The notes beneath the pieces were generated by a model. It ran no database searches, was not told where the DNA came from, and worked only from the letters and a program-made list of their open reading frames with translations. From the sequence record MN850601.1: 64,000 bases of DNA. The stretch is one strand, 5' to 3'. This stretch comes from Escherichia phage inny. The translations under genes and the position numbers were made by a program. Below, one piece after another: positions 37,665-55,470 of the stretch (position 1 is its first letter; each line of letters opens with the position of its first letter).

Positions 37665-37955
37665 TTATAGTAAAACACGTTTTGCACTGCTTGGTGCATT
37701 GTCGAACATGTTTATCACTTTGTCAAGTTTGTGTATTAACTCGTTCGTAATGTTCCACTCTTTGTATGATCTCCATTGTTTCTTATTCTCACCTACCTGG
37801 TGTAAAACTTTGATTGGTGCATTCAAACGTACATTGCGTTCTTTGTCCTCTTCAAAAGAGGCTAACCATTTTTCGTTATGCCCATGAACAGCAATAATAA
37901 TGCCAAAACCATCAAAAGTTTCTGTAATATTCTTAGTTGCTAGTGTGATGTTCAT
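37665..37955 (-). CDS. hypothetical protein
   Basis: 96 aa; first gene of leftward block. Confidence 0.5.
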   Translation of the reverse strand: MNITLATKNITETFDGFGIIIAVHGHNEKWLASFEEDKERNVRLNAPIKVLHQVGENKKQWRSYKEWNITNELIHKLDKVINMFDNAPSSAKRVLL

Positions 37956-38014
37956 ATCTAACCTCTTTTGTTACGATGCACACAGAGTACCAGAAATTAA
38001 TTTCAGATCAAGTA

Positions 38015-40737: not shown

Positions 40738-41910
40738 ATGACAGCACCAAAATCATGGGAACAATATAAAGAAGAATTAACACCCCTTGCTAAAAATCGC
40801 AATATTCAAATCCGGGGTTATGTTGGTGAATGGAAAGGGAACAAGACTAAACTTAAGCTATCTTGCCCTAAACATGGAGAGTGGAACACCACGAACATTA
40901 ATGATTTTAAGAAGGGACGTGGTTGTCCTATCTGTTCTGGTAAGAAGCCGTTAACATGGGAAACAGAATTGCCGATCTTGGAAGAGATAGCACAGAAGAG
41001 GGGGTATCAGGTGTTAGGGTACGTGGGAGAATGGAAAGGGAATAAAACAAAACTTGATTTGTTGTGTCATTGTGGTAATAAATGGGATACTACAAGTATT
41101 AACAATTTTAAACGTGGTAGCGGTTGTCCACAATGTAAGAGGGAGAGACAAACAATGTCCGACGATCAACATATTGCAGATTTCTTTTCTACAGGGGAAT
41201 TTAAGGAAGGCACTATCTTCACCAATACAGGGAAACGTAACAAGCGTGATGCAGTATGGATGGTTGAGTGTCCTGTTTGCTCCCATGATGAATATGTTCA
41301 AGCAGGTGTTTGTGATGGTAAATTTTACTCTGCAGGACATAACCTTAAACAAGGGTATATTCCGTGTCGTTGTGGGAACTATCAGTATACAGAAGACCAG
41401 ATCACCTATAGGGTAAAAAAGGAAGTAGAAGGGAAAGGGTATGTCTGGGTAGATTGGATTACCAAACCCTCTTCTATAGGTAAGTTTAAATATCTTTGTC
41501 TTGTGCATGGTGAGCAGATAGGGAGTGCTCGTAATTTATTAAGCCTCGGTCAAGGTTGTCCACAGTGTGCTGGTCATAATCAACAGCAATTATATATTAA
41601 TATTGTTAAAGATAATGATATTATAGTTGCTCTTAAGTTTGGTATATCTAAAGATAGCGATAGACGATTAAACGGTCAAAATAGCCGTAATCTGTTTTTT
41701 ATGGAGCGTATTTGTTTATATGATTTTAGCACAGTGAAACAATGTAGGGCTGCTGAAAGAGCTATAAAGAAAAAATTAAAAACTGGTATTTTAACGGCAA
41801 GAGAGTTGAAAGATGGTTATACAGAAACAGTAAGTGTTTCTGATTTGGAAAATCTTCAAAAAATTATTACACAATATGGTGGCAAATTAGTATACAGTAA
41901 GGAGATGTAA
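40738..41910 (+). CDS. multi-zinc-ribbon repeat protein (possible nucleic-acid-binding/nuclease)
   Basis: 390 aa; four repeats of GYVGEWKGNKTKL...W.TT.IN.FK.G.GCP.C type; CxxC pairs. Confidence 0.55.
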   Translation: MTAPKSWEQYKEELTPLAKNRNIQIRGYVGEWKGNKTKLKLSCPKHGEWNTTNINDFKKGRGCPICSGKKPLTWETELPILEEIAQKRGYQVLGYVGEWKGNKTKLDLLCHCGNKWDTTSINNFKRGSGCPQCKRERQTMSDDQHIADFFSTGEFKEGTIFTNTGKRNKRDAVWMVECPVCSHDEYVQAGVCDGKFYSAGHNLKQGYIPCRCGNYQYTEDQITYRVKKEVEGKGYVWVDWITKPSSIGKFKYLCLVHGEQIGSARNLLSLGQGCPQCAGHNQQQLYINIVKDNDIIVALKFGISKDSDRRLNGQNSRNLFFMERICLYDFSTVKQCRAAERAIKKKLKTGILTARELKDGYTETVSVSDLENLQKIITQYGGKLVYSKEM

Positions 41911-42462
41911 ATGCGGATTACTGATAAGTATGTGTTCTTCTTCTCGGCAAAAGATGAATTTAGCAACTGGTATCTATCATCTTTTATTGAACCTTTAGCT
42001 CCCAAGTATAATAATTCTATTACAAGTTCTGTTGAATTTACTTGTGTGGAACAATATATGATGTGGAGAAAAGCATGTTTGTTTTATGATTACAACATTG
42101 CATCTTCTATTTTAACCGGAGATCTAAGATATACAGGAGAAAAAGAACAGGCATATTATAAGCGACTAGGTAGATTAGTTAAAGATTACGATGAAGCTAC
42201 TTGGACTTCTTTACGGGAGAAGATTGTCAAGCGTGGTTTGTATCTTAAATACACACAAAATGAAGATCTCAAAAATAAACTTATCGCTTACGCAGATAAG
42301 GAGTTCGTAGAGGCAAGCCCTTATGATTCTATTTATGGTATCAAAATGGGAATGTGGGATCGTGATGTGGAAAATAAGGACTGTTGGAAAGGACAAAATC
42401 TTTTAGGAAAATGGCATACAGACCTTGCTGTTTATCTAAAAGCACAATCTGATATTTCCTGA
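41911..42462 (+). CDS. NADAR (YbiA-like, DUF1768) domain protein
   Basis: 183 aa; FFFSAKDEFSNWY, FTCVEQYMMWRKA, EASPYDSIYGIKMG, WKGQNLLGKW align with YbiA as recalled. Confidence 0.7.
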   Translation: MRITDKYVFFFSAKDEFSNWYLSSFIEPLAPKYNNSITSSVEFTCVEQYMMWRKACLFYDYNIASSILTGDLRYTGEKEQAYYKRLGRLVKDYDEATWTSLREKIVKRGLYLKYTQNEDLKNKLIAYADKEFVEASPYDSIYGIKMGMWDRDVENKDCWKGQNLLGKWHTDLAVYLKAQSDIS

Positions 42463-42678
42463 TATTTTGAAAATTTTTATTTTTATAAAAAGGGGTGTGG
42501 GTTTCATGTACGGAAATCCACCCTCTGAATAATATATCCAGAGTAAATATTATTCTGTACTCTGTTAATAAAGTATTTAATTTGTTTGTTTGACTATGGT
42601 ATCTGATCTTTAAAAGACATACTATCTCTTAACTACTACTTATAACAGAACAGTAAAATCATTTTTATAAAAAGTACA

Positions 42679-42885
42679 AAATTATTTAAAGTTTTTACAG
42701 ATTTTTGGGTACAAATTTTGAAAATGAAAAGTTCAAGTTTGGTCAAAATTATTTAAAGTTTTTGTACGTATTTCTGTCCAGATTTTGAAAATGAAAACTT
42801 CAATTTTTTAAAAATTCCCCAGTTTATTTAAAGTTTTTTTGCCTTTTTCCGTAGAAAAATCAAAAATGAAAAGTTCAATTTCGTG
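42679..42885. repeat. three tandem copies of a ~66-bp unit (ATTTAAAGTTTTT ... TTTGAAAATGAAAAGTTCAA)
   Basis: Direct repeats seen at about 42679, 42746, 42811. Confidence 0.7.
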
Positions 42886-42899
42886 TTTTTATAGGTGTG

Positions 42900-43015
42900 T
42901 TAATGAGAATCATTTTCGTTTGTAAATGAGAATCATTATCATTTAACTATGTAAGTGATAATCATTCTCAGTAAGAGAATGAGAATCATTAGCAAATGAG
43001 AATTTTCTCATTTAG
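42900..43015. promoter_or_regulatory. cluster of five ATGAGAATCATT-type palindromic boxes (Fur-box-like)
   Basis: atgagaatcatt x2, gtgataatcattctca, aatgagaatcatt, aatgagaattttctcatt; ATGAGAATCATTATC matches 14/15 of the Fur consensus core. Confidence 0.45.
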
Positions 43016-43244
43016 AGAATAACGCGCAGGGGCGGTGTTTGTCTCGCGCTCCCGTGTCCCCTCGCCATACAATAAGAATAGCATAACCAACAACAAAAGC
43101 AAGCGATTATTTTTATCTTTACATTTCTTTACAAATTTATTTTAGACGAGCTACCGGCGATCAACCTTCCAACCAGTGCCCCCTGGTATGTTAGCCCCGC
43201 CTTTACGCCGTGGGGGTGGCGTTTCCTCTTCTGTATGTAAAACA

Positions 43245-43272
43245 GTATAAGCCCGATCCCTGGGCTTGTCAA
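43245..43272 (-). promoter_or_regulatory. orphan sigma70-like promoter (TTGACA-N17-TATACT) reading leftward into GC-rich non-coding DNA
   Basis: Reverse complement of tgtcaa...agtata; no ORF with plausible start downstream. Confidence 0.35.
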
Positions 43273-43274
43273 GA

Positions 43275-43541
43275 TTATTTTTTGTTTTCTTGCCAGGATA
43301 GGACACCTAACCAAAAATACATGTCGCCCCGCGCCCCTGGCGGGATCTTGCTTTCCCCGCCGCCACTACAAGCCCATAGATAACCATTAGCGAACGGATC
43401 AAAATGATCTATTTCTTCCACCTTATGATCGCCCAGGTTGAGAACGGTTTCAACCTTTAAGCCCGTTGCGCTTGCTACCTGGTGCACCGTGCCGCCTTGC
43501 CAGCCTAATGAGTGCATGAGGTGTAGAGTAGTATTTGTCAT
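43275..43541 (-). CDS. hypothetical protein
   Basis: 88 aa; led on minus strand by hairpin + CATCAAAGAAAGGG RBS like the rightward cassettes. Confidence 0.5.
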   Translation of the reverse strand: MTNTTLHLMHSLGWQGGTVHQVASATGLKVETVLNLGDHKVEEIDHFDPFANGYLWACSGGGESKIPPGARGDMYFWLGVLSWQENKK

Positions 43542-43544
43542 GGT

Positions 43545-43640
43545 ATCGCCCTTTCTTTGATGTGCGCCCTGGTTGGCGCGGTAGAAAGATAATAGCCCTT
43601 TCCTTTATAGATAGCAAGCAAAAAAAAGAAATGAAAAAAA
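43545..43640 (-). promoter_or_regulatory. promoter + stem-loop cassette (minus-strand copy)
   Basis: On minus strand: TTGCTT-N17-TATTAT, then hairpin GCGCC-N6-GGCGC, then ACATCAAAGAAAGGG. Confidence 0.4.
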
Positions 43641-43664
43641 GATTAAAAAAGGGGTTGACGTTCC

Positions 43665-43693
43665 TCACCTGGTAGCGTATTATTCATCTTGTC
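43665..43693 (+). promoter_or_regulatory. sigma70-like promoter (TTGACG-N17-TATTAT)
   Basis: Divergent from minus-strand cassette. Confidence 0.4.
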
Positions 43694-43810
43694 GAGGGGG
43701 GCGAGGCACAACGACAATAAACAAAAGGAGGGCGCAATGTAGGACGGGCAAAGGTGAGGATCTCCATAATCCACCGTCACAATAACATTACTTATAAAAG
43801 GTTGATAACG

Positions 43811-43906
43811 ATGATCAAGAAAGAAAACAGCTTGACGGTTGGAACGATTAACGCTATCATTCTTGCCGTTCCATTTTGGATTGTAGTTGCGGTTATTATT
43901 TTTTAA
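43811..43906 (+). CDS. tiny hydrophobic peptide (31 aa), speculative
   Basis: MIKKENSLTVGTINAIILAVPFWIVVAVIIF; weak SD. Confidence 0.25.
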   Translation: MIKKENSLTVGTINAIILAVPFWIVVAVIIF

Positions 43907-43914
43907 AAATATTC

Positions 43915-43970
43915 TTGACAACGTTTTTTAATCTGATAAGATGTATCACATAGGGCGGCAATAGTGCCGC
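43915..43970 (+). promoter_or_regulatory. early promoter + 5' stem-loop cassette
   Basis: TTGACA-N16-TAAGAT, then CATAGG + hairpin GCGGCA-ATAG-TGCCGC. Confidence 0.55.
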
Positions 43971-43994
43971 TCATAACAGAAGAGAGAAATAATC

Positions 43995-44267
43995 ATGGCA
44001 TCATATAGCGCATCAATGATCGTAATGGGCATCACTGGTAAACCTATGCGCGGTGGCGGATCTTTCGCTAACATCAATATTGATGGGCGTTTATCCCTGG
44101 ATGCAGCGATCACCGTGGCACGGGAAACATTTAAAAAAGAATGTAATTTCAATAAACAAGATTATCTCGGTTTCGCTATTGAAAAAACCGCGCGATTTGT
44201 GGATTATAAAAGCCCGAAAATGATCGACACTACACTAAAAGCGCAAGATGTAGCGTTTTTGCTTTAA
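43995..44267 (+). CDS. hypothetical protein
   Basis: 90 aa; follows cassette. Confidence 0.55.
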   Translation: MASYSASMIVMGITGKPMRGGGSFANINIDGRLSLDAAITVARETFKKECNFNKQDYLGFAIEKTARFVDYKSPKMIDTTLKAQDVAFLL

Positions 44268-44269
44268 GT

Positions 44270-44330
44270 CTTGACACTGAAAAATAATTTGGTAATATAT
44301 ACTCCATAAGGCGGGAAATGGTTTCCCGCC
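44270..44330 (+). promoter_or_regulatory. early promoter + 5' stem-loop cassette
   Basis: TTGACA-N16-TAATAT, hairpin GGCGGGAAA-TGG-TTTCCCGCC, then CATCAAAGAAAGGG. Confidence 0.55.
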
Positions 44331-44355
44331 AGGCCATCAAAGAAAGGGTAACACA

Positions 44356-44718
44356 ATGAGCAAGCAAATCAATACTATCATGTTAAACCTGGTATCTTTC
44401 CGCGACGACGTGAAAAATCTTCCACGTGATGCAGTGGATGCACGGATCGAAAGCTATCGCTCACAGATCGCAACGCTACCGCTAAAACGTGATCAACATG
44501 CCGCTAATATGATGCTTAATGCTATGCTTAAAAAGATGATTCAATGTGATCTTACCCTGGCTTATGAATATGCTGGCGATCTCTTTGTAACATATAGCAA
44601 GCCCGTACCAGGTATGAGCACAACGGAAGAATTGCATGCCTTAAATCTGCGACAAGATGCATGGGATAACATGCGCCGTGTTATGGTATGGGTAGAAAGC
44701 GGTAAAATTTACGAATAA
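44356..44718 (+). CDS. hypothetical protein
   Basis: 120 aa; follows cassette. Confidence 0.55.
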   Translation: MSKQINTIMLNLVSFRDDVKNLPRDAVDARIESYRSQIATLPLKRDQHAANMMLNAMLKKMIQCDLTLAYEYAGDLFVTYSKPVPGMSTTEELHALNLRQDAWDNMRRVMVWVESGKIYE

Positions 44719-53951: not shown

Positions 53952-54025
53952 AAATGATAATCATTCTTATCTATAGCTGATTATTTATGCAATAAATTGC
54001 ATAATGCAATAATGATAATCATTCC
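53952..54025. promoter_or_regulatory. two Fur-box-like palindromes
   Basis: AAATGATAATCATTCTTATC and ATAATGATAATCATTC against consensus GATAATGATAATCATTATC. Confidence 0.45.
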
Positions 54026-54319
54026 TAACTTAAGACCATCTAACCTATAAAATAATAAGTTATCTAACTAAATTAAAACTAATTATCTCACTTTTATTTA
54101 TAACTTACTGTTACTATCTCATTGATAACATTGTATTAAACAACAATAACTAATATAAATCATTACTAAGCTAAATATAATCTATCTAACCCTTAAAACT
54201 ACAATTATAATCTATCGAATTGTTGCACAAAGTAACTATTAAATTGTTAGTAACATTACTAAATAATTCACATCCTATCTATTTATGATCTAATCTTTAC
54301 CTTCCTATCTATTACTTAG

Positions 54320-54371
54320 ATAATCATTTCATACAGTAACCATTTCATGTAGTAATCATTCCATACAATAA
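54320..54371. repeat. three tandem ~17-bp iteron-like repeats
   Basis: taatcatttcatacagtaac / catttcatgtagtaat / cattccatacaataac. Confidence 0.6.
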
Positions 54372-54503
54372 CTATAACAAGAAATATAATTCGCAAGCGT
54401 ATCATTAGCAGCCTATGCCGGACACATAGGCGGCTAATAATAACGCAACTACACACCCCACATAATAACCATCACCGATAGTCATTATTTGTGCTTATGT
54501 AGC

Positions 54504-54563
54504 TTGCAACAACTGCAAGCGCAACAATATACAATTGTATATTGTATCCCTTACATTGTTGCG
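54504..54563. repeat. nested inverted repeats around a perfect 20-bp palindrome
   Basis: TTGCA-ACAAC-TGCAA; GCAACAAT ... ATTGTTGC flanking CAATATACAATTGTATATTG. Confidence 0.6.
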
Positions 54564-54892
54564 GTGCGTTATTATTAGCTAATGTTTAGAACATTGGCTA
54601 TAATATAAGCTAAATAATAAGCTATACAATAATAAACATCGTGAATAATGATGCTGATGATCATAATGCGCCACCTTCCAGGGGGCGCTATGTGAACACA
54701 AAGAAATCTTTCTTGTCAAGAAAAATATTAACACTATTGCGCAAAATTATTTATATATGAATAGATGGTTTTTCATACTATTGTTATTATTTATCGGGCA
54801 TAGTTATAGCCTATTTGTTGAGCCTACTCTTTTAAAAGCGCAATAAAGTAGAATTATCTTGATTTTTAGTCGGTTTTATAGTACAGAAAGTA

Positions 54893-54915
54893 TGCAAATG
54901 ATAATCATTATCAAC
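54893..54915. promoter_or_regulatory. near-consensus Fur-box-like palindrome
   Basis: AAATGATAATCATTATC matches 16/17 of Fur consensus TAATGATAATCATTATC. Confidence 0.5.
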
Positions 54916-55078
54916 TATCTTCCACGGGTGGCACTATTTCACGCCAGATCATTTCATTTGGCAAGGTGTATATAGATGTTTAGACTTGCCAAGCCATTGA
55001 TTTACTTAGAATTTATCTGTTTTGTTGTGAGTAGTACCTTTCTTGCTCAGAAAATAATCAAAAGTCTTATAAGTCATT

Positions 55079-55110
55079 GAATGATAATGCAAATGATAAT
55101 TATTCTCATT
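55079..55110. promoter_or_regulatory. tandem Fur-box-like half-sites
   Basis: GAATGATAATGCAAATGATAATTATTCTCATT. Confidence 0.4.
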
Positions 55111-55229
55111 GATATTTGAGGGGGACGGTCGGCAGAAATCGGGGGGGCGCTGAAAATCGCGTTAAGCACCTCTCGCAAGCGAGCAGTGTTTTGCGGCAAG
55201 TTATTGATATTATTGACTTTACGCTTATG

Positions 55230-55342
55230 AAAAGGGGGTGTGTCGAAATAAATCGGGTATACCGGAAAATTTTTGTGGCATAGATATTTATTTGTCTATA
55301 TTATGTACAAAGGGGTGTGTTAAAAATAATAGGTATATATAG
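55230..55342 (+). promoter_or_regulatory. two copies of conserved motif AAAGGGG(G)TGTGT-N11-12-GGTATA upstream of rightward late-type block
   Basis: aaagggggtgtgtcgaaataaatcgggtata and aaaggggtgtgttaaaaataataggtatata; partial third copy near 42489. Confidence 0.35.
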
Positions 55343-55470
55343 AATAATTGATAGGGAAATCCTATACTAATCCCTCCATTAATGATGTTCCTAGATTACT
55401 GTTCTTGTAATAGATGAAAAGACGCTGTATAATGTGTGGCATGAAACGTAAACTTATAAAGGAGTCTGAT

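Follow-up and report, generated by a model that had tools for sequence, protein, structure and literature searches.

A conserved leftward promoter and a predicted pseudoknotted non-coding RNA in phi92-like and rV5-like phages

The gp223–gp224 interval and its relatives

In a 64,000-nucleotide (nt) stretch of Escherichia phage inny (MN850601.1; hereafter the window), an interval of 812 bp separates gp223, which encodes a NADAR domain protein and ends at 42462, from gp224, an open reading frame (ORF) on the minus strand to its right. The interval holds no annotated gene in carefully curated records. Reading leftwards from gp224, it contains a sigma70-type promoter (P1), a structured GC-rich block (block B), a second leftward promoter (P2), a second GC-rich block (block A), a series of palindromes and a set of direct repeats (Table 1). 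On the basis of the sequence comparisons described below we propose, at a probability of about 0.75, that P1 drives a conserved, structured non-coding RNA.

Over the 2 kb around the locus, sequence comparison gave 99.3% identity to Escherichia phage Paula and 96–99% identity to about 50 other Justusliebigvirus/phi92-like phages, which places the source phage of the window among the Justusliebigvirus (phi92-like) phages. Positions 43000–43300 matched 236 phage records in a sensitive blastn search. All identifiable matches are rV5-like or phi92-like myoviruses, with hosts that include Escherichia, Klebsiella, Salmonella, Cronobacter, Pectobacterium, Erwinia, Enterobacter and Serratia among others, and in distant genera the match shrinks to 43116–43241, where identity is 82–88%, far above that of the flanking genes. 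At blastn sensitivity the element had no match in 5,426 complete E. coli genomes, and we ruled out a host origin on this ground. Over this region, two records labelled as Campylobacter phages, A150 and B15 (MG065639.1 and MG065650.1), share about 98% identity with the E. coli phages; probably they either carry a wrong host label or stem from contamination.

The comparison set comprised 33 distinct sequences from at least eight genera, many of them closely related, which span the Stephanstirmvirinae and at least six genera of the Vequintavirinae and include about 20 fetched records and six IMG/VR loci. The latter were obtained by scanning metagenome, genome and viral contigs with the 14-base pattern ATCGCCGGTAGNTCG, followed by nhmmer filtering. 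The listed matches to this pattern were mostly chance hits in GC-rich organisms and are uninformative on the presence of the element in bacteria or metagenomes; a longer scan pattern for the element is AAGGTGGATCGCCGGTAG.

A leftward promoter, P1, fused to a terminator-like hairpin

P1 matches the promoter consensus at 11 of 12 positions and is the top promoter match within 42300–44500, with a predicted start at about 43236–43238. The initial annotation, made from the window alone, had picked out this TTGACA-N17-TATACT promoter, and the comparison bears it out. Homologues matching 9–12 of the 12 positions, with a spacing of 17–18 nt, are present in 33/33 distinct relatives (−35 TTGACA, TTGACG or TTGCAA; −10 TATACT, CATAAT, TATATT or TACAAT), and they keep a fixed distance to the structure described below, the −10 ending 15–22 nt before the pseudoknot, while the spacer is free to change, its sequences being unrelated among the 33. 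Judged by this pattern, in which hexamers and spacing are kept and the spacer drifts, P1 is conserved as a promoter. It is not, however, the ‘orphan’ that it was initially called, but the first of tandem leftward promoters aimed at an ORF-free repeat region of about 800 bp, an arrangement conserved across two subfamilies. No conserved rightward promoter facing block B was seen in the 33-sequence comparison. We found no transcriptome of any related phage in the searchable literature.

A terminator scan detected a hairpin within the P1 spacer. It looks like the terminator of gp224, which by this prediction would make P1 a composite terminator/promoter. The arms of the hairpin differ among lineages yet stay complementary in most lineages with an upstream minus-strand gene, and the hairpin is weak or absent where the genome has no such gene.

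Composite early-promoter/stem-loop (terminator/promoter) motifs of this kind, PeSLs, have been described in T4-like phages (PMC2839356, PMC4122927), and P1 could be seen as a mere PeSL-like junction whose transcript is noise that fades in non-coding DNA. The likeness, which we take as functional, leaving homology to the T4 PeSLs aside, lies in a sigma70-type early promoter and a GC stem-loop that flank short early genes of unassigned function and are reused often. The P1 spacer doubles as the putative gp224 terminator hairpin, each nearby early gene has a promoter and stem-loop cassette (three of these align, see below), and the P1 transcript shares the purine-rich leader ACAGAAGAGGAAA with the mRNA of a rightward 90-amino-acid (aa) gene. 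The phage family and the motif are different, however; the cassette stem-loops lie downstream of the transcription start, as 5′ hairpins of the mRNA, and P1 leads into a conserved, predicted pseudoknotted RNA rather than a gene. Furthermore, P1 and block B are kept in genomes without an upstream minus-strand gene (CR9, POP15 and Erwinia phages), and therefore P1 is not merely a by-product of a terminator, while 82–88% identity combined with compensatory pairs across subfamilies would not be expected of noise. We consider a mere junction improbable.

The predicted fold of block B

Block B is the structured 5′ domain of the predicted P1 transcript. Its predicted H-type pseudoknot has the order CGCC-A-CCCC(C)-AC-GGCG-UAAAGGC-GGGG, in which the CCCC in the hairpin loop closed by stem S1 pairs with the downstream GGGG to give stem S2. 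On the minus strand the loops measure 1–2 nt (L1), 1–3 nt (L2) and 6–7 nt (L3, which is A-rich) and are compatible with coaxial stems; in the window L1 is 1 nt and L3 is UAAAGGC. S2 occurs as CCCC/GGGG, as CUCC/GGGG in 4MG, as CCAA/UUGG both in an Erwinia phage and in the additional Ro1 and P7_Pc copies (see below), and as CCAG/CUGG in an IMG/VR phage. Its pair 19–36 is CG in 26 sequences and AU in 5, and its pair 20–35 is CG in 25, AU in 3 and GC in 1, with one U-G overall; the compensatory result also holds in gap-free coordinates anchored on the invariant GGCG. S1 (CGCC/GGCG) is predicted by RNAalifold and is invariant, except that three sequences lack its outer pair. The hairpin that follows, H1, has the variants GCGCCG/CGGCuGC, a GAAA tetraloop in one lineage and G-C replacing A-G. 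After H1 comes the near-invariant sequence AAGGUGGAUCGCCGGUAGCUCG, and the CGCCG of this tract (43157–43153) could pair with the 3′ arm of S1 (S1b) in place of the 5′ arm (S1a).

Both alignments used to assess the fold were fitted to the structure. In the hand-registered alignment (A2), 92.0% of cells were paired versus 85.3% in shuffled controls (0/500 shuffles reached the value) and covariation was 0.143 versus 0.044 (0/500), with slid controls pairing at 28–51%. In the covariance-model alignment (A4) the corresponding values were 89.7% versus 81.4% paired and 0.198 versus 0.065 covariation (0/500), and both sides of H1 change in 7/10 pairs versus 3.7 in shuffles (0/500). At 33–91 bits the covariance model finds a single copy in each genome, except for Ro1 and P7_Pc, which have two; the rest of the window has none, and no copy turned up in the 3-kb loci from phage HMD-6 and from Shewanella phage 1/4.

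Several points weigh against the fold, and with it against a structured RNA. Given an unbiased MAFFT alignment, RNAalifold finds no more than S1 and part of H1, and the covariation term is about 0, so that the support for S2 and H1 depends on hand- or model-fitted alignments. The folding energy of the single sequence is ordinary on both strands (z +0.5 and +0.7), and thermodynamic support was dropped because these scores are not significant. The structure statistics come from about 33 distinct sequences, many of them close kin. Lastly, since S1 never varies, we infer the whole pseudoknot, as opposed to S2 alone. A long-range stem suggested by RNAalifold (GGCGGGGCUA/UAGCUCGCC) was rejected, as it is not kept in type-2 variants or extra copies and competes with S2.

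The minus strand is favoured as the strand that carries the fold by the direction of the promoter, by the G-U counts (six cells on the minus strand versus one on the plus strand, both small numbers) and by the tetraloop and the geometry of the pseudoknot loops. A plus-strand RNA was rejected as the main product, given the lack of a conserved rightward promoter, the fewer G-U cells and an impossible L3, which would be 1 nt in that reading, although an antisense plus-strand RNA may be an additional product. These observations also bear on the possibility that the RNA is irrelevant and that the region works as DNA only, forming cruciforms or single-strand hairpins (for example for priming or initiator loading) with the conserved tracts as protein sites. 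The surroundings are indeed dense in DNA sites, among them palindromes, iterons and the GTAAA direct repeat; the tract after H1 is conserved far more strictly than pairing requires and appears to be a point of insertion or recombination. Set against this, the promoter stands at a fixed distance upstream and duplicates together with the structure, the GNRA tetraloop and the strand-specific pseudoknot geometry point to RNA, and the G-U-compatible changes favour one strand, which at such small numbers weakens the DNA-only explanation. We judge that explanation to have a low probability.

No terminator-like site was found on the minus strand between 43147 and 43020, and none is visible in the other genera. 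The initial annotation had proposed a candidate small non-coding RNA; a covarying structure on the leftward strand agrees with that proposal, but the region is not one 210-nt gene, and with no intrinsic terminator after its structured part the existence of a discrete ‘small’ RNA is unproven. A search of the whole window against Rfam 15 at gathering thresholds returned zero matches, and at E up to 10 the segment 42400–43700 gave chance-level miRNA-type matches on the palindromes and none on block B. The pseudo-ToxI element of phage phiTE was dismissed as a counterpart, as it sits at another locus, at 106.7 kb.

Table 1. Features of the gp223–gp224 interval and of the adjoining divergent promoter region
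Feature	Position	Strand	Description
P1, sigma70-type promoter	43244–43272	−	−35 TTGACA 43272–43267; 17-nt spacer; −10 TATACT 43249–43244
Hairpin in P1 spacer	43249–43267	−	AAGCCCagggatcGGGCTT then ATACTGTTTT; −8.8 kcal/mol, z −1.7
Block B	43147–43238	−	structured 5′ domain of predicted P1 transcript: purine-rich leader, pseudoknot, H1, invariant tract
Predicted H-type pseudoknot	43195–43221	−	S1 CGCC 43221–43218 / GGCG 43209–43206; S2 CCCC 43216–43213 / GGGG 43198–43195
Predicted hairpin H1	43166–43194	−	irregular stem CU-aa-CA-u-ACCAG [GGGGCA] CUGGU-UG-ga-AG
Near-invariant, apparently single-stranded tract	43147–43170	−	GGAAGGUUGAUCGCCGGUAGCUCG; invariant alignment columns; unique in the window
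GTAAA direct repeat	43118–43132	−	GTAAAGAAATGTAAA; exact GTAAA-N5-GTAAA; candidate CpxR~P site
P2 region, second leftward promoter	43075–43134	−	ancestral TTGCTT 43102–43097, N16, TATTCT 43080–43075
Block A, GC-rich	43026–43066	−	downstream of P2; core GAGACAAACACC (plus strand GGTGTTTGTCTC, 43034–43045); conserved across genera
Five palindromes	42899–43014		type TGAGAATCATTCTCA; 20–29 bp apart; Fur-box-like
Three direct repeats (iterons)	42661–42881		67–75 bp; in DNA of 22–25% GC
gp224	43275–43541	−	88-aa ORF; annotated Phi92_gp224 / PAULA_0094 in relatives
gp224 cassette	43549–43617	−	promoter TTGCTA-17-TATTAT 43617–43589; 5′ hairpin GCGCCaaccagGGCGC 43579–43564; leader CATCAAAGAAAGGG 43562–43549
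Rightward promoter	43655–43683	+	TTGACG-17-TATTAT; 10/12 consensus; back to back with gp224 promoter

Composition and coding potential

The segment 43020–43240 has 44–45% GC, compared with 22–26% just to its left and about 37% in the window. The GC enrichment noted initially at 43030–43240 is thus real, but it does not form one segment: two GC-rich stretches, 43020–43066 and 43145–43235, are separated by AT-rich DNA and correspond to modules A and B, which are split by the second leftward promoter and the GTAAA-N5-GTAAA box.

The core of the element varies from 117 to 129 nt in length, with all classes modulo 3 represented, and differences of 1–2 nt occur even among relatives that are 96–99% identical, where they fall in the hairpin loop. 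No conserved start codon or reading frame was found in the relatives compared, consistent with the early remark that the region lacks a plausible ORF start, and it is non-coding in related phages as well. A small protein might nevertheless have been missed: some records annotate short ORFs, and GC-rich plus-strand frames are often stop-free over about 125 nt. The annotated ORFs disagree in frame and strand, however, no start is conserved, lengths fall in every class modulo 3 and most curated records leave the region empty, and we regard a missed protein as extremely unlikely.

The record of Klebsiella phage vB_Kpn_K45PH128C2 (OY978796.1) places tRNA-Met, tRNA-Ile and tRNA-Lys on top of the palindromes, block A and a promoter region (locus positions 1362–1515 and 1982–2057). 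ARAGORN found no tRNA or tmRNA in the window or in seven related loci, OY978796.1 included; these annotations therefore look spurious, and we rejected a tRNA or tRNA-like element.

P2, block A and the repeat arrays

In the window’s own genus P2 is degenerate, the ancestral hexamers matching at 8/12 positions, with an alternative TTGTAA-17-AATAAT at 43134–43106 that matches at 9/12. Elsewhere it is found in most genera at a constant offset, with TTGCAA, TTGATC or TTGACC, a spacer of 16–17 nt and TATATT, TATTAT or GATAAT (9–10/12). The GTAAA direct repeat between block B and P2 matches exactly the CpxR~P consensus, GTAAA-N5-GTAAA (PMC3158067), and lies just upstream of a promoter, although a single match in the window versus 0.34 expected is not significant on its own. 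Its position is fixed in 24/33 sequences, and in other genera 5 bp separate it from the P2 −35 downstream. A resemblance to OmpR or PhoB sites was considered and is not claimed.

A palindrome is always next to block A, for which no convincing structure emerged. The other genera show the same order of elements with a third leftward promoter. In the rV5-like Escherichia phage HMD-6 (locus positions 1480–1760) the combination of palindrome, block A (GGTGnTTGTCTCC) and leftward promoter occurs in two tandem copies. Blocks A and B are separable, because HMD-6 has no block B within its 3-kb locus.

The palindromes downstream of block A resemble the Fur box (GATAATGATAATCATTATC; in its 7-1-7 form TGATAATnATTATCA). 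Four sites in 42899–42993 match the consensus at 15–16/19 positions and three in 54008–55107 at 15–17/19, and at three or fewer mismatches the consensus has 5 matches versus 0.05 expected; yet the palindromes lie downstream of P2 rather than over the promoter, and most of their half-sites read TGAGAAT, not TGATAAT. Palindromes are present in every related genus examined, including Shewanella phage 1/4. Since their half-sites vary independently, without compensation, we predict that they are protein-binding sites at the DNA level, and we rejected RNA hairpins for the same reason. The Fur-like and CpxR-like boxes are resemblances in sequence, and a phage-encoded protein could be the partner.

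Triple iterons equivalent to those of the window occur in other genera, and GC content is 22–25% over 42500–42900. W70, 4MG and Erwinia phages, whose iterons carry two GATC sites each and end in CGAAAAAATTTTT, have the iteron motif ACTTGAnn-TTTTCATTTTC on the other strand than the window; the inversion of the block agrees with sites that act at the DNA level whichever way they face the transcript. Repeats of GATATTTG lie at the end of gp223 and are shared across genera together with the palindromes, iterons, tandem promoters and a GC content of 22–25%. Just past the gp223 stop, at 42492–42530, there is a hairpin, GGGTGTGGGTTTCatgtacgGAAATCCACCC, followed on the minus strand by CUUUUUAU, which could serve as a terminator of leftward transcripts about 750 nt from P1; in phAPEC8 its equivalent is annotated as a plus-strand terminator.

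Additional copies of the promoter and fold

Two genomes carry the P1, pseudoknot and hairpin unit twice, in diverged copies: Raoultella phage Ro1 (locus positions 1290–2260) and Pectobacterium phage P7_Pc (locus positions 1297–1660). In Ro1 the extra copy forms the 5′ untranslated region (UTR) of a 197-aa ORF, 25 nt before a Shine-Dalgarno (SD) sequence (AAGGAGG) and ATG. The product of this ORF has no Pfam match, and GGATCGC repeats flank the ORF inside the invariant tract; P7_Pc retains only the 3′ end of the ORF. In both phages homology of the extra copies breaks inside the invariant tract, a pattern that looks like mobile insertion with later deletion. Promoter and structure duplicate together, and therefore the structure travels with the promoter as its 5′ domain.

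gp224, its leader cassette and the divergent promoters

The 88-aa minus-strand ORF described initially is present. It encodes a protein without an assigned function, matches PHROG 19316 (E 3e-59) and has no Pfam match. The divergent promoter hub proposed with it was recovered as well, the gp224 promoter adjoining a rightward promoter. The leader of gp224 aligns with those of the rightward 120-aa and 90-aa genes over promoter, 5′ GC hairpin, purine-rich ribosome-binding site (RBS) leader and ATG, and the three 5′ hairpins fold at −11.9 to −16.7 kcal/mol. An exact CATCAAAGAAAGGG occurs only twice in the 64 kb, at 43549–43562 (−) and 44335–44348 (+); at two or fewer mismatches there are 5 matches versus 0.54 expected, a number reached in 0/100 shuffles. 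By 14-mer search, leader alignment and hairpin folds, the cassette of promoter, hairpin and RBS is indeed used on both strands, although the suggestion that gp224 shares its leader with the rightward array holds for the layout and not for the exact 14-mer, which recurs in only one rightward gene.

In the leader of the first rightward transcript, at 43725–43742, a strong SD (AAGGAGG) precedes an ATG that directly abuts TAG; this start-stop mini-ORF precedes an ORF for a 31-aa membrane peptide, which begins at 43812. On the other side of the interval, gp222 (40738–41910) encodes CapR-homology repeats and a T5orf172 domain and matches PHROG 681 ‘endonuclease’; located about 0.5 kb away from the non-coding DNA, it is possibly a mobile nuclease gene.

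Possible roles of the P1 transcript

The comparisons above are of sequences, and from them we infer the production of the RNA, its 3′ end, its function and any link to replication. The role that we favour, tentatively and at somewhat less than even odds, is one in cis within an origin or control region. It is suggested by the lack of a terminator and of a downstream gene, and by tandem promoters aimed at iterons and AT-rich DNA. Host sigma70 RNA polymerase would read P1 early and start a leftward non-coding transcript near 43237. Its first 90 nt or so would fold into the pseudoknot (43221–43195) and H1 (43194–43166), followed by the unpaired tract (43170–43147). The tandem leftward modules, two here and three in other genera, would transcribe into the Fur-like palindromes, the iterons and AT-rich DNA, and the whole region of about 800 bp would be a replication-origin/control region in which the P1 RNA acts in cis. 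By transcribing into the repeats, host polymerase would activate initiation or supply its primer, in the manner of the T7 primary origin, T4 ori(uvsY)/ori(34) and ColE1 RNA II; the role of the folded 5′ domain would be to keep the transcript stable or to control how far it extends.

Known origins offer several parallels. Transcription-dependent initiation operates at the T7 primary origin, where the tandem promoters phi1.1A/B precede an AT-rich stretch, at T4 ori(uvsY)/ori(34) through R-loops, and in ColE1 through RNA II. As in T7, tandem promoters without genes point into AT-rich iteron DNA, though here they are of the host sigma70 type; as with RNA II, a structured 5′ RNA domain lies upstream of the putative initiation zone. 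The lambda ori contains four palindromic iterons, the O-binding sites, and the four to five palindromes here are spaced about 20–29 bp apart like those sites. Clustered repeats, palindromes and AT-rich, ORF-free DNA, the layout of an iteron origin, are found together here and in the same form in other genera. What sets the locus apart from these origins is that GC skew gives it no support and that a second similar ORF-free region exists.

An origin at this place also has to be weighed against the following. No observation ties the region to replication, and the minimum of the cumulative GC skew falls at about 38 kb (37955–37976), where leftward and rightward gene blocks diverge from a junction of 20 bp that has no non-coding region. 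This minimum, which marks a switch of gene orientation, points away from the present locus, and a placement of the origin by GC skew was dropped. Another ORF-free region (53960–55410, no ORF of 60 aa or more) has similar palindromes, closer to the canonical Fur box, and could equally be the origin. It contains, at 54899, TGATAATCATTATCA, an exact 7-1-7 Fur consensus (54894–54912 matches at 17/19), several repeat families, the GATATTTG motif and a hairpin, GCGCCaccttccaggGGGCGC, with the word GGAAGGTGG in common with block B. The box labelled ‘non-coding’ on the rV5 map probably corresponds to this second region. Finally, an origin-activating transcript does not obviously need so conserved a fold. 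The lack of a link to replication, the skew and the second region are the reasons why we hold the origin role at no more than tentative strength.

Promoter-proximal RNAs that fold and act in cis are known in phages: the HK022 put RNAs consist of two stem-loops without a pseudoknot, antitermination by them extends transcription into genes, and they contact host polymerase. Block B resembles them in being promoter-proximal, very conserved and carried along with its promoter, and would likewise be cis-acting; it differs in having a pseudoknot and no downstream genes or mapped terminators.

The P1 RNA could instead be a free, trans-acting RNA of about 90–100 nt, released by processing or by Rho-dependent termination in the AU-rich stretch 43146–43106, which may act by pairing through the tract GGAAGGUNGAUCGCCGGUAGCUCG or by binding or sequestering a conserved host protein. 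The extreme conservation of this apparently unpaired 22-nt tract, in phages of Escherichia, Klebsiella, Salmonella, Cronobacter, Pectobacterium, Erwinia and Serratia, fits a target common to all Enterobacterales, and Ro1 and P7_Pc keep two diverged paralogues. No genus, however, has an intrinsic terminator or 3′ U-tract after the structure, unlike typical enterobacterial small RNAs; P2 follows directly, so read-through is expected; no complementary site occurs elsewhere in the 64-kb window; and no match was found in E. coli genomes at blastn sensitivity, which misses short seeds. A trans-acting RNA thus appears unlikely, if less so than the other alternatives. The AGGU-n-GAUC of the tract may resemble an SD sequence extended towards the 16S 3′ end; resemblances of the tract to a T-loop, a D-arm or the anti-SD partner were considered and are not claimed.

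Another possibility is a riboswitch-like or attenuator leader responsive to a ligand or protein, in which ACGGCG would pair either with the upstream CGCC (S1) or with the downstream CGCCG (43157–43153); the outcome would decide leftward elongation or, in Ro1, expression of the downstream ORF. H-type pseudoknots are found in the gene 32 leader of T2/T4 and in the preQ1-I and SAM-II aptamers, and block B shares with them two short GC stems, an L1 of 1–2 nt, an A-rich L3 of 6–7 nt and a place near the 5′ end of the transcript, followed by unstructured, AU-rich RNA. It is promoter-proximal at a fixed position, its junction and loop nucleotides are invariant while its peripheral stems vary, S1b has two invariant and mutually exclusive partners, and the Ro1 copy is a 5′ UTR next to an SD and ATG. 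Block B has no similarity to any Rfam family, however, with no riboswitch match even at E up to 10; no expression platform, whether a terminator or an SD-sequestering helix, is identifiable, most genomes have no downstream gene to regulate, and the alternative pairing is invisible to covariation because both partners are invariant. A sensor leader is, in our estimate, distinctly unlikely. The same applies to a combination of sensor and origin, a speculative idea in which a ligand- or protein-responsive pseudoknot would control whether host polymerase transcribes into the origin and would so tie the start of phage DNA synthesis to a cellular signal, with the Fur- and CpxR-like boxes adding iron and envelope-stress inputs.

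Significance for rV5-like and phi92-like phages

We came across no account of this RNA in the searchable literature. The rV5 genome paper marks only a ‘non-coding’ box and did not find an origin by skew, and the papers on Certrevirus, Septuagintavirus and phiTE do not mention the region. The rV5-like and phi92-like phages (Vequintavirinae and Stephanstirmvirinae) are often isolated and are candidates for therapy and biocontrol. Our analysis defines in them a testable unit, consisting of a promoter, a predicted pseudoknotted RNA of about 90 nt, a second promoter and arrays of host-regulator-like sites, which is conserved in more than 200 genomes and at present either lacks annotation or is wrongly annotated, as tRNAs or tiny ORFs. 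An RNA that acts at an origin would give a handle on how replication starts in these phages, and a sensor-gated origin, if true, would be a type of origin controlled by RNA and host factors for which no counterpart has been described in lytic phages. An RNA that acts in trans would be a new phage RNA directed against a target conserved in all Enterobacterales. Either way, the annotation is corrected and a covariance model for the family is supplied.

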